From Candidatus Dormiibacterota bacterium (GTDB lineage Bacteria; Chloroflexota; Dormibacteria; Aeolococcales; Bog-877), in assembly GCA_027313505.1 (NCBI GenBank), contig DAHVDN010000004.1, forward strand, positions 27,716 through 91,715: a stretch of DNA of 64,000 bases. Direction: 5' to 3'. The translations under genes were made by a program, and so were the position numbers. This document shows, one piece after another, positions 6,794 through 9,645 of the stretch. The notes under the pieces are model-generated. The model saw nothing but the letters and a program-made list of their open reading frames with translations, did no database searches and was not told where the DNA came from. Position 1 is the first letter of the stretch. Each line of letters starts with the position of its first letter.

Positions 6794-9091
6794 TTGACTG
6801 AGCCATGGATCGGACGATCCCAGGTCCGGCGGGAGGACTCCCGTTTGGTCCGTGGGCAGGGCGCGTACCTGGATGACCTGCCATTCTCCGACTGCCTCCA
6901 TCTCGCCTTCATCAGAAGTCAGCTACCCCACGCCAGAATTCGGGCTCTGGATCTGGGAGCGGCCAAAGCCGCACCTGGTGTTCTGCAGCTTCTTACGGCG
7001 GCAGATCTACCCGAGGGCCTGCTTCCGTTGCCCCTCCGAGCCACGCAGCTTCCGAATGACTTCGAGGTCGCCGACGTTCCGATGCCAATCTTGGCCGGCG
7101 ATGTGGTTAGGTTCGCTGGCGAGGCCATGGTCGCGGTGGTGGCGGAATCCCCGAGTCAGGCTGCCGACGCCGCCGACCTGGTTTGGCCGGAGATGGAGTC
7201 CCTGCCGTCCGTGGGCGGCCCCAGGGCGGCGTTGGATGGCGGCCCTCCGGTCCAGGCGGCCGCACCAGACAACGTGCTTTTCTCCTACCATCATCAATCG
7301 GGCGACGTGGATGGGGAGTTCGAGCTGGCCGCCCGGGTGATCAGGGCGCAATTCGCCATTCCCCGGCTTCAGGGGTCACCCATCGAACCAAGGGGGTGCG
7401 TCGCCGCCTACTCAGCCGATGAAGATCTTCTGACCCTCTGGTGTTCGTCCCAGGACCCCCACCGACCGCGGATGCAGATGGCCTACGTCCTGGGGCGTCC
7501 GTTAGACCGAATTCGGGTGGTCGTGCCCGACGTCGGGGGAGCCTTCGGGAGCAAGGGAGGGTTGACTCCCGAATATGTTGTCGCGGCGGTGACGGCCATC
7601 AAGTTGGGCCGTCCCGTCAAATGGGTCGAAACGCGCTCTGAAGGGTTCCTCGCCGCCTACCAGGGACGGGGAATGGAAGCAGACGCCGAACTTGCAGTGG
7701 ACGCGACGGGCCACTTCAAAGCTCTCCGCGTTCGCATGATCTTCGACGCCGGCGCCTATCTCATGGGGCACACAGCTGTTGTGGGTGCAACCGCGAGCAG
7801 CCTCGTAACCGGTGCCTACGACATACCCGCAGCCGATGTGCAGGTGATCGGGGCAGCCACCAACAAGGTGCCGACCGGACCTTACCGGGGCGCCGGCCGA
7901 CCCGAGGCCACATTCGTGATCGAGCGCCTCGCCGACTTGGCGGCGGTGGAGATGGAACTCGACCCGGTGGCGATACGGAAGCTGAATCTAATACCGCCAG
8001 AAGCTTTCCCGTACCTCGCCTCGACCGGGACCGAGTATGACTCCGGCGACTATCCAGGGTTGCTGGACCGGGCTGTGGAGCTGGCCGACTACGCCAAGGA
8101 GCGCACCCGTCTGGCGAGTGACCGATCTGGCGGCAAGCTTCGAGGGATTGGAGTTGCAGTCGCCGTCGAGTCCAGCGGAAACGGCAACTGGGAGACCGCT
8201 GCCGCTGCCCTGCAGCCGGATGGTCGGGTGCTACTACTTCCGGGTTCAAGCGACCACGGGCAGGGCCACGCGACCACCTTCTCACAGATTGCAGCGGACG
8301 CGATGGGGATCGACACCAACGACATCGAGGTCCATAGCGGTGACTCCGCGGAAGTTCCCCTGGGGATGGGAACCTTCGCTAGCCGCTCGGTGACCGTCGG
8401 CGGAGGGGCAATCCTCCTGGCGATTGAGGAGCTTCAGCGCCGATGCACGATCTGGGCCGCCCATCTCCTTGACATTCCTGAGGAGGAGCTGAGGTGGCAT
8501 CACGGAGCGATTGGCAGTGCGGCCAGCGAGCAGCTCATCACCCTAGCGGAGATCGCGAAGGCTGCTGCCACCCGACCGGACGGTGACCTGCCAGAACTTC
8601 GAGGCGACGGTCGCTTCACCCTGCCGCGGCTGGCCTTTGGGTCCAGTGCCTCGGTAGCCACCGTGGAGATTGACCGGGAAACTGGCTTTGTGCGGGTCGA
8701 GCGGCTGGTCACCGTCGACGACGCGGGGCCGATCATCAACCCACTGCTCGCGGAAGGACAGGTGATCGGTTCGAGCATTCAAGGAGTCGCTGCGGCCCTT
8801 TTTGAGGAGGTCGCCCACGACGGCGAGGGCCAGCCCCTCACCGAAGGCTTCATGAGCTACTCCATCCCCACCATGCCGGATGTAGCCATCGAGATGCTCA
8901 CGGAGTTCAGACCAACCAGGTCGCCGCTCAGCCCTCTGGGAACCAAGGGGGTGGCCGAATCAGGTTGCATCGTGGTGCCTGCTGCGATTGCCAATGCCGT
9001 GTCGGATGCGCTCTTGGGGCTGGGGGTTGGGCAGACCAACCCGCCCTATTCGCCGGAGAAGATGTGGCGACTACTAGGAGGACAGTTGTGA
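6794..9091 (+). CDS. Xanthine dehydrogenase / aldehyde oxidase / CoxL-family molybdopterin-binding large subunit. It is an orphan: no adjacent FeS or FAD subunits.
   Basis: The 765 aa ORF begins MTEPWIGRSQVRREDSRLVRGQGAYLDDL, typical of the family N-terminus. The family fold continues along the whole length. Confidence 0.8.
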   Translation: MTEPWIGRSQVRREDSRLVRGQGAYLDDLPFSDCLHLAFIRSQLPHARIRALDLGAAKAAPGVLQLLTAADLPEGLLPLPLRATQLPNDFEVADVPMPILAGDVVRFAGEAMVAVVAESPSQAADAADLVWPEMESLPSVGGPRAALDGGPPVQAAAPDNVLFSYHHQSGDVDGEFELAARVIRAQFAIPRLQGSPIEPRGCVAAYSADEDLLTLWCSSQDPHRPRMQMAYVLGRPLDRIRVVVPDVGGAFGSKGGLTPEYVVAAVTAIKLGRPVKWVETRSEGFLAAYQGRGMEADAELAVDATGHFKALRVRMIFDAGAYLMGHTAVVGATASSLVTGAYDIPAADVQVIGAATNKVPTGPYRGAGRPEATFVIERLADLAAVEMELDPVAIRKLNLIPPEAFPYLASTGTEYDSGDYPGLLDRAVELADYAKERTRLASDRSGGKLRGIGVAVAVESSGNGNWETAAAALQPDGRVLLLPGSSDHGQGHATTFSQIAADAMGIDTNDIEVHSGDSAEVPLGMGTFASRSVTVGGGAILLAIEELQRRCTIWAAHLLDIPEEELRWHHGAIGSAASEQLITLAEIAKAAATRPDGDLPELRGDGRFTLPRLAFGSSASVATVEIDRETGFVRVERLVTVDDAGPIINPLLAEGQVIGSSIQGVAAALFEEVAHDGEGQPLTEGFMSYSIPTMPDVAIEMLTEFRPTRSPLSPLGTKGVAESGCIVVPAAIANAVSDALLGLGVGQTNPPYSPEKMWRLLGGQL

Positions 9092-9645
9092 TGAGCGAAC
9101 CAGAGCCAAGGGTAGACCTGGAGCGCATGCGCCGCGTTTACCAAGCCAGCAAGTCAGAGGCAGCGGGCCAGCCGATGATCACCCAACGGGCGGTCGCGCG
9201 TATTGATCGCGACCTGCATATGGAGGGCCGGGTCGGCAGCTTCCGGCTGGAGTCCGATGAACCGAAAGATGGAGGTGGTGGAGGTACCGCGCCGAGGCCT
9301 CTGCAGTACCTGCTGGCCGGGGCGGCTTTTTGAATGCTCACCCAACTGGCGAAGTTTTCGCCTCTTTACGAAGTCGCGATATGGGATGCCGAAGCCGACG
9401 TGCGCGCCACCTTCAGCCTGGCAGATAAGTATGACCTCGGCGGCCCCCTGGGCGCGTTTCAGCGCGTGGAGTTCCGGCTGAGTGTGAAGAGTCCGGCGCC
9501 GCCCGAGGCGGTGGCCAGACTCTGTCTGCACGCCGAGAGAGCCTGCCACGCCAGTCAGACCTTCCGGCATCCGGTGCCGACAACCCTGACCGTGGATCTC
9601 AACGGCGCTGCCTTGGAGATTTCGTCCTCGGAGGAACTGAGTTGA
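9091..9645 (+). CDS. OsmC/Ohr-family peroxiredoxin-like protein with an in-frame TGA (9331..9333) at the peroxidatic Cys position. Candidate selenoprotein; the alternative is a pseudogene.
   Basis: Track ORFs 8965..9333 and 9334..9645 are in the same frame and are separated only by the TGA. Joined, they read ...PLQYLLAGAAF-[TGA]-MLTQLAKFSPLY...HAERACHASQTF. This aligns with the OsmC motifs ...LIGAAHAA-C-FSMAL... and ...AKAGCPVSQVL. The ATG at 9091 overlaps the upstream stop (TGATG). The gene end overlaps the downstream SDR start. Confidence 0.55.
9348..9362 (+). other. Perfect 6-bp inverted repeat (ggcgaa / ttcgcc) 14 nt downstream of the in-frame TGA. Putative SECIS-like hairpin.
   Basis: The sequence tga-atgctcacccaact-GGCGAAgttTTCGCC is read directly from the window. 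Position and size are compatible with a bacterial SECIS. The apical loop contains G and U. Confidence 0.3.

Follow-up and report, generated by a model that had tools for sequence, protein, structure and literature searches.

OsmC-like selenoproteins, in which selenocysteine (Sec, U) lies in a UxxT motif, were reported in 2005 from the Sargasso Sea metagenome by Zhang, Fomenko and Gladyshev (three sequences, COG1765, with a predicted selenocysteine insertion sequence, or SECIS; PMC1088965), and a 2026 review of selenoproteomes in prokaryotes (PMC13188914) includes the OsmC-like selenoprotein family. Here we analyzed a gene at positions 9091-9645 of a 64,000-nucleotide stretch of contig DAHVDN010000004.1, from a Candidatus Dormiibacterota bacterium; we refer to this whole stretch as the window. 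An original prediction, made from the sequence of the window, had proposed that this gene encodes a selenocysteine-containing OsmC/Ohr protein and had noted, correctly, that OsmC-like Sec proteins were listed from marine metagenomes. We concluded that the locus is a real selenoprotein gene, mis-annotated as two open reading frames (ORFs), and we are highly confident that its internal UGA is decoded as Sec.

The gene and its features lie on the + strand. Translation gave one frame from the ATG at 9091 to the TGA at 9645, and its sole interruption was the TGA at 9331-9333. Read through this codon, the frame contains 184 codons, including Sec81, followed by the stop codon, in agreement with the joined product of about 184 amino acids that had been predicted from two ORFs separated by the TGA. 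A Shine-Dalgarno-like AGGAGG (9076-9081) lies 9 nucleotides 5′ of the ATG. In the public annotation, the locus is split into two ORFs of 80 and 103 amino acids. This two-ORF annotation is an artefact, because gene callers stop at UGA.

With Cys placed at the TGA, the joined 184-amino acid product matched the Pfam family OsmC (PF02566) with an E value of 8.6e-13 and 49 bits, compared with a cutoff of 27.5 bits. The match covers residues 63-166 and therefore crosses the TGA position, residue 81. For the N-terminal half alone, no Pfam match was obtained, and the C-terminal half alone was barely at the cutoff. The NCBIfam model NF041052 (NF041052.1), named 'OsmC-related (seleno)protein', gave 140.1 bits against a curated cutoff of 95 and was aligned over positions 2-144 of its 144 positions. 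Because its score is above this cutoff and it carries the motif U-M-L-T (a UxxT motif of which Sec81 is the first residue), the window protein is, as judged from its sequence, a member of this known and curated family.

In HMMER alignments, residue 81 was aligned to the first conserved Cys of the PDB entry 3cje (AGLTG-C-VMTQ) and of several Ohr structures (AGYAA-C-F). We take this first Cys to be the peroxidatic Cys of the OsmC/Ohr family, the position to which the original prediction had assigned the TGA. The second Cys that it had described as conserved, Cys152 (TGC codon at 9544-9546; ERA-C-HASQ), was invariant across the alignment of the C-terminal halves and fell on the second conserved Cys in both 3cje and Ohr, as seen in the alignments with 3cje, 6mjn and 3eer; it is the presumed resolving cysteine. 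Outside the Cys helix, the alignments to Ohr/OsmC were weak, too weak there to place reliably the conserved active-site Arg and Glu, the catalytic partners by which the peroxidatic residue is activated in these enzymes.

An AlphaFold model was built for an orthologue, P0001, not for the window's own protein, with a mean predicted local distance difference test score (pLDDT) of 72. In the P0001 model, the Sec position was in the middle of a helix (residues 71-90, pLDDT >90). In a Foldseek search of the PDB with this model, the top nine matches were OsmC/Ohr structures, led by 1lql, 3cje, 6mjn, 1ukk, 2onf and 1nye. Because the model places Sec within a helix and matches OsmC/Ohr structures, the two 'ORFs' are halves of one domain. 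The HMMER alignments, the P0001 model and the Foldseek matches all pointed to an OsmC fold in which the two conserved redox residues lie on two helices. The gene very probably codes for one protein of OsmC fold whose catalytic position is occupied by selenocysteine.

For comparison among species, an alignment of the C-terminal halves was used to scan one genome per species. This gave 75 loci, and 80 loci in all with those from other sources. The 75 genome loci were mostly labelled Ca. Dormibacterota, Ktedonobacterales/Chloroflexota, or metagenome-assembled genomes (MAGs) of Actinomycetes; two were labelled Bacillota. The protein identity of the orthologues ranged from about 50% to 84%. TGA was found at the exact homologous codon in 69 of the 75 species-level genome loci and in 73 of the 80 loci overall. 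Direct read-out of this codon across the 80 loci gave TGA in 71 and TGC in two (L047 and L055). Two further loci, L071 and L078, also have TGA there, ahead of a frameshift about 40 codons 3′, which raises the TGA count to 73. Among the remaining loci, L057 has lost 47 codons in frame, and the others matched only in part, outside the TGA position. The amino acid sequence around the TGA was conserved on both sides (...PLQYLLAGAAF-U-[M/L]LTQ[L/V]A[K/R]F[S/A]PLY).

The ratio of nonsynonymous to synonymous substitution rates (dN/dS; Nei-Gojobori, 76 pairs) was 0.145 over 52 codons 5′ of the TGA and 0.196 over 90 codons 3′ of it. These values indicate that both halves are under purifying selection, in line with the earlier view that the gene is functional rather than decaying. 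The break in the orthologues was fixed at the TGA, with no sign of the variable breakpoints that had been named as a mark of a pseudogene. A change from TGC or TGT to TGA would need only a single base, and a few related loci are damaged (the deletion in L057 and the frameshifts in L071 and L078), as might be expected if the TGA marked a pseudogene or a sequencing or assembly error. However, the TGA is shared by 73 independently assembled loci, four separate assemblies (L002-L005) contain the identical sequence, both sides of the TGA have a dN/dS of about 0.15-0.2, and an RNA hairpin downstream of it, described below, is conserved. A pseudogene or an error therefore has next to no probability, and this explanation is refuted by the comparative data.

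The damage in L057 (9872-10255), where the deletion removes Sec and the active-site helix, and in L071 (9758-10284) and L078 (662-1125), where it consists of the frameshifts, represents either decaying copies or assembly errors. Several loci have odd taxonomic labels. L013 (Ca. Nanopelagicaceae), L014 (Ca. Micrarchaeia archaeon) and L071 (Verrucomicrobiia) have the same gene order as the Dormibacterota loci and 57-87% protein identity to them. L036 and L052 (Ca. Eisenbacteria) have the selenoprotein gene and lack the Dormibacterota gene order. These labels probably come from mis-binned contigs or wrong taxon assignment of MAGs.

A protein search returned the window's C-terminal half together with 11 diverged proteins of 101-103 amino acids (70-78% identical) that have the same Met start after the TGA, two N-terminal halves ending in ...GAAF, and three full-length proteins from the Joint Genome Institute (JGI), P0001-P0003, with 'W' at the TGA position. 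An exhaustive HMMER search with P0001 over 1.84 billion cluster representatives gave 444 relatives. About 100 of the more distant full-length cluster representatives had Cys at the Sec position (F-C-L-L-T-Q), 19 N-terminal halves stopped at the Sec position, and 21 C-terminal halves started just past it. The distribution of Cys and predicted Sec among the relatives is the classic pattern of a Cys/Sec pair.

The 'W' in the JGI proteins was traced to the DNA of L001 (702-1253, JGI 3300085978 contig), which has TGA at this codon and had been read with genetic code 4. A reassignment of TGA throughout the genome (genetic code 4 or 25) would agree with the Trp in the JGI calls for P0001-P0003. It is contradicted by the window, where TGA is an ordinary stop codon that terminates 41 of the 55 genes, including the selenoprotein gene itself and its upstream neighbour. 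Moreover, the call of P0001 under code 4 runs past the true TGA stop (…EP*G*). The G+C content is 64%, and the TGA-reassigned lineages we know of are low in G+C. We consider the probability of reassignment negligible, and this candidate is refuted by the stop-codon usage in the window. Since TGA is an ordinary stop codon even at the end of this gene, Sec decoding must depend on local context.

Code 4 was apparently picked by a metagenome gene caller on a high-G+C contig, and the resulting 'W' proteins hide selenoproteins in the database. When the window was scanned crudely for further frames that are interrupted by TGA and rich in G+C at the third codon position, many non-specific candidates came up at 64% G+C, and the scan was dropped.

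A hairpin is a candidate for this local context. The model of bacterial SECIS elements (bSECIS) has a loop of 3-9 nucleotides, a stem of 4-16 base pairs, a spacing of 16-37 nucleotides between UGA and loop and an energy of −7.5 kcal/mol or lower, and it also asks for a G among the first two nucleotides of the loop, which opens with G followed by G or U (PMC13188914). In the window, an inverted repeat (ggcgaa at 9348-9353 and ttcgcc at 9357-9362) encloses the loop gtt (9354-9356), and its stem begins 14 nucleotides past the TGA, as had been noticed before. The hairpin at 9348-9362 agrees with the model in all of these features, with a loop of 3 nucleotides starting with G-U, a stem of 6 base pairs, a UGA-to-loop spacing of 20 nucleotides and an energy of −7.7 kcal/mol in context; for the window's own sequence, the energy passes narrowly.

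We compared the hairpin in an ungapped alignment, A3, of 68 distinct TGA-containing segments. The stem was paired in 99.3% of the cells of the alignment, and none of 500 shuffles matched the observed pairing or covariation. When the 3′ partners were slid as a control, pairing was only 31-66%. The GUU loop and four of the stem pairs did not vary. The other two pairs, which adjoin the loop, switched jointly, from A-U/A-U in a clade with Lys-Phe-Ser (GGCGAA-GUU-UUCGCC) to C-G/G-C in a clade with Arg-Phe-Ala (GGCGCG-GUU-CGCGCC). Unguided RNAalifold on the alignment returned the same helix and detected no conserved lower stem or bulged U.

Codon choice in the hairpin was frozen. Ala at +6 was always GCG (69 of 69), Arg at +7 always CGG (42 of 42) and Ala at +9 always GCG (42 of 42). 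At the other fourfold or sixfold degenerate positions within 30 codons on either side, three to six codons were in use, except for Leu at +5 (two codons). For Phe at +8, the choice between TTT and TTC followed the pairing partner in all but 3 of the 68 sequences. The Cys-form orthologues L047 and L055 had other codons and had lost the hairpin. The covariation, the constraint at synonymous sites and the agreement with the bSECIS model suggest that the hairpin would act as a bacterial SECIS, the role proposed for it in the original prediction. Together with the TGA conserved in 69 of the 75 genome loci and the NF041052 match, this constraint on the hairpin supports a selenocysteine-containing protein of the OsmC/Ohr family.

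Directly 5′ of the Sec UGA, the window also has a terminator-like hairpin (9315-9327) followed by TTTTT (GGCCGGGGCGGCT TTTTGA). Such terminator-like sites numbered four in the region compared with 3.0 in shuffles, and the orthologues differ synonymously in the codons that make up this hairpin. This hairpin probably arose by chance.

The codon after the TGA bears on another explanation, a split gene, in which UGA would end an N-terminal fragment of 80 residues, the AUG at 9334 would reinitiate a C-terminal fragment of 103 residues, and both fragments would assemble into an OsmC fold. ATG does follow the TGA directly in the window and in the loci most closely related to it (L002-L011, L013 and L016), and the public annotation has two ORFs. 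In this clade, the Gly codon four codons 5′ of the TGA is always GGA or GGG, resulting in GGAG or GGGG about 11 nucleotides before the ATG (9319-9336 in the window). The string may serve reinitiation as a weak ribosome-binding site, or it may simply reflect shared ancestry. However, ATG is confined to the window's own clade, and the codon after the TGA is CTG, CTA or CTC, none of them a standard start, in more than 55 orthologues. Because these are not usual bacterial starts (ATG, GTG or TTG), the C-terminal half cannot in general initiate independently. The break would also fall in the middle of the helix that bears the catalytic residue, so that a split would delete this very residue, and the conserved SECIS-like hairpin and the Cys/Sec pairing would be left without a role. 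We therefore regard a split gene as very unlikely. As for the Gly codon in alignment A3, it was GGA or GGG in all nine sequences with ATG, and GGC or GGT in 12 of the 17 sequences with CTG of the same Lys-Phe-Ser group.

Several observations weigh against decoding of the UGA as Sec. The hairpin of the window is weak, with an energy of −6.5 kcal/mol alone, compared with −11.0 kcal/mol for the hairpin of the G-C-rich clade. The folding check that had been suggested earlier was successful only in part: the bSECIS consensus was matched as described above, but the single-sequence fold of 9328-9400 was no more stable than shuffles (z = −0.05), and its minimum free energy structure differed from the hairpin. 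The case for the hairpin rests on comparative data, because single-sequence energy is uninformative here. The two compensatory pairs divide two clades and may represent a single evolutionary event.

Further points on the same side come from the search for Sec machinery, which covered the 64 kb of the window and about 1.2 Mb of flanks from other genomes. None of selA, selB, selD and the gene for tRNA-Sec was found in the window or the 80 loci, selB not having been searched by sequence. ARAGORN detected 90 tRNAs in the window and the 80 loci and no tRNA-Sec. Rfam at gathering thresholds gave only tRNA-Val over the whole window, with no match to a SECIS or tRNA-Sec family. With SelA and SelD of E. 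coli as queries, tblastn gave no match in the window or the loci, which is a weak negative. No sel genes were present among the annotated genes of the window, some of whose ORFs were outside the Pfam scans; another 30 ORFs, at 19.6-64 kb, were scanned with Pfam and included no sel genes, being housekeeping genes, an ABC transporter and two ORFs without a family. We infer the Sec-decoding trait of the host because the UGA and the SECIS are conserved, and SelB-dependent decoding and the peroxidase chemistry of this subfamily from the family.

These negative results would suit a read-through of the UGA without Sec, in which a near-cognate tRNA, perhaps with the hairpin as a stimulus, adds Trp, Cys or Arg, or in which tRNA-Sec is loaded with Cys, resulting in a full-length and selenium-free protein. 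Read-through can be stimulated by downstream hairpins in some systems. Against it, the position belongs to the catalytic Cys that the family conserves, and Trp or Arg at this place would abolish the activity, and the hairpin fits the SelB-type SECIS model including the G-U start of the loop and the spacing. In addition, the family is curated as a selenoprotein family (NF041052; PMC1088965). Read-through without Sec has, in our judgement, little chance of being correct, and we prefer the decoding of this UGA as Sec.

For Sec decoding, we propose the following mechanism. SelB, loaded with Sec-tRNA(Sec), would bind the hairpin at 9348-9362 and thereby be brought to the ribosome, where the UGA at 9331-9333 would be read instead of terminating translation. 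By homology with OsmC/Ohr, Sec81 would be the peroxidatic residue, on the central helix in the UxxT motif. It would reduce a hydroperoxide and become a selenenic acid, which Cys152 would resolve by forming a selenenylsulfide with Sec81. A thiol reductant would then recycle the Sec81/Cys152 pair.

The gene overlaps both of its neighbours in the window, as the original prediction had pointed out, and in the window's clade. Upstream is the gene for the large subunit of a molybdenum-cofactor (Mo) hydroxylase of the xanthine/CO/aldehyde dehydrogenase family (6794-9091, + strand; assigned from the Pfam families in the gene table of L002), whose TGA stop at 9089-9091 overlaps the ATG start at 9091-9093 (TGATG). 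Downstream is the gene for a short-chain dehydrogenase (SDR; 9642-10406, + strand), whose TTG start at 9642 overlaps the TGA stop of the selenoprotein gene at 9643-9645. The overlap of stop and start suggests translational coupling with the upstream Mo-hydroxylase gene. The surrounding cluster in the window's clade includes genes for an amidohydrolase_2, two AMP-dependent ligases, TrmB-type regulators and an ABC transporter, and the downstream SDR gene is at an identical offset of +308 in most orthologues of this clade. The Mo-hydroxylase, SDR, amidohydrolase, CoA-ligase and TrmB genes are syntenic with the selenoprotein gene only in the window's clade, and the neighbours are unrelated in other clades. 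Because the synteny is not kept beyond this clade, the neighbourhood gives no general clue to the function or substrate.

For the Mo-hydroxylase gene, no adjacent genes for a 2Fe-2S or FAD-binding subunit were seen within the annotated 20 kb, and its best NCBIfam matches (glyceraldehyde dehydrogenase alpha and aerobic CO dehydrogenase) were all below the equivalog cutoffs. The 672 bp before it (6122-6793) have no called gene. Next, at 4769-6121, there is a fusion of a metallo-beta-lactamase fold with rhodanese, of the persulfide dioxygenase/sulfurtransferase type, which adjoins a GntR regulator and a molybdopterin oxidoreductase with 4Fe-4S/NrfD partners at 1-3694. A sulfur-metabolism neighbourhood lies beside the selenoprotein cluster, in an arrangement conserved only in the closest relative, L006. 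Farther away, 25159-62832 is a long run of co-oriented housekeeping genes on the minus strand, including pheS/pheT, thrS, genes for a ksgA-type methylase, TatD, NAD synthase and a DinG-like helicase, cmk, scpA/scpB, a recN-like gene, the NAD kinase gene, xseA, yceG, alaS and aspS. The ORFs at 53841-55625 (594 amino acids) and 62756-64000 had no Pfam match.

In existing records, the gene is either split into two hypothetical ORFs (80 and 103 amino acids) or given Trp for the UGA. About 40 clusters in the protein database are halves of such genes, and merging them would correct the annotation of dozens of MAGs. Some 70 species-level genomes, from Ca. Dormibacterota, Ktedonobacterales and MAGs with the label Actinomycetes, retain the TGA and the SECIS. 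This conservation is indirect evidence suggesting that these little-studied soil lineages decode selenocysteine. Our literature search found no paper on Dormibacterota together with selenocysteine or selenoproteins, and no report of selenoproteins in soil-type MAGs of Ca. Dormibacterota or Ktedonobacterales.

Taken together, the observations would allow a bolder interpretation, which we consider improbable: that the Dormibacterota/Ktedonobacterales sub-clade is an essentially obligate-Sec branch of OsmC (73 Sec to 2 Cys) with an unusually small SECIS of 15 nucleotides, and that, in the window's clade, the AUG after the UGA and the GGAG/GGGG upstream might add a fail-safe in which scarce selenium leads to termination, reinitiation and two fragments. 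If true, an obligate-Sec branch would imply an unreported and widespread selenocysteine-decoding trait in the uncultured phylum Dormibacterota.

As for known systems, the locus reveals neither a new mechanism nor a new protein family. New at most are the host range, the predominance of Sec over Cys in the sub-clade (73 to 2) and the comparative support for a very small SECIS, of which the alignment is a clean, covariation-supported example of the minimal bacterial kind. With the OsmC-like selenoproteins of the Sargasso Sea and NF041052, the window protein shares the OsmC fold, Sec in place of the first conserved Cys in UxxT, the presence of Cys homologues and a SECIS 3′ of the UGA. The described examples are from marine metagenomes, whereas those found here are from soil-type MAGs of Ca. 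Dormibacterota and Ktedonobacterales, and it is in their sub-clade that the Sec form far outnumbers the Cys form.

The OsmC/Ohr thiol peroxidases (E. coli OsmC and the Ohr of Xylella, Pseudomonas and Vibrio; 1nye, 1n2f, 3eer and 6mjn) have the same Pfam domain and fold, and their two conserved redox residues align with those of the window protein, the first lying on the central helix, the second on a helix farther along. In contrast to them, the window protein has Sec instead of the peroxidatic Cys and an N-terminal extension of about 45 residues, and identity over the structural alignments is 11-22%. The closest solved relative by sequence is 3cje (E = 3.1e-08), the OsmC-like hydroperoxide resistance protein Jann_2040 of Jannaschia sp. 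CCS1. It shares the motif G-C-x-x-T-Q at the Sec position and the second Cys. It differs in being a Cys form, comes from a marine alphaproteobacterium and shows low identity overall. The hairpin, finally, resembles the E. coli fdhF-type SECIS in being a stem-loop in the coding region 3′ of the UGA, with a G-U start of the loop and a spacing within 16-37 nucleotides, whereas its conserved part is much smaller, with a stem of 6 base pairs and a loop of 3 nucleotides.

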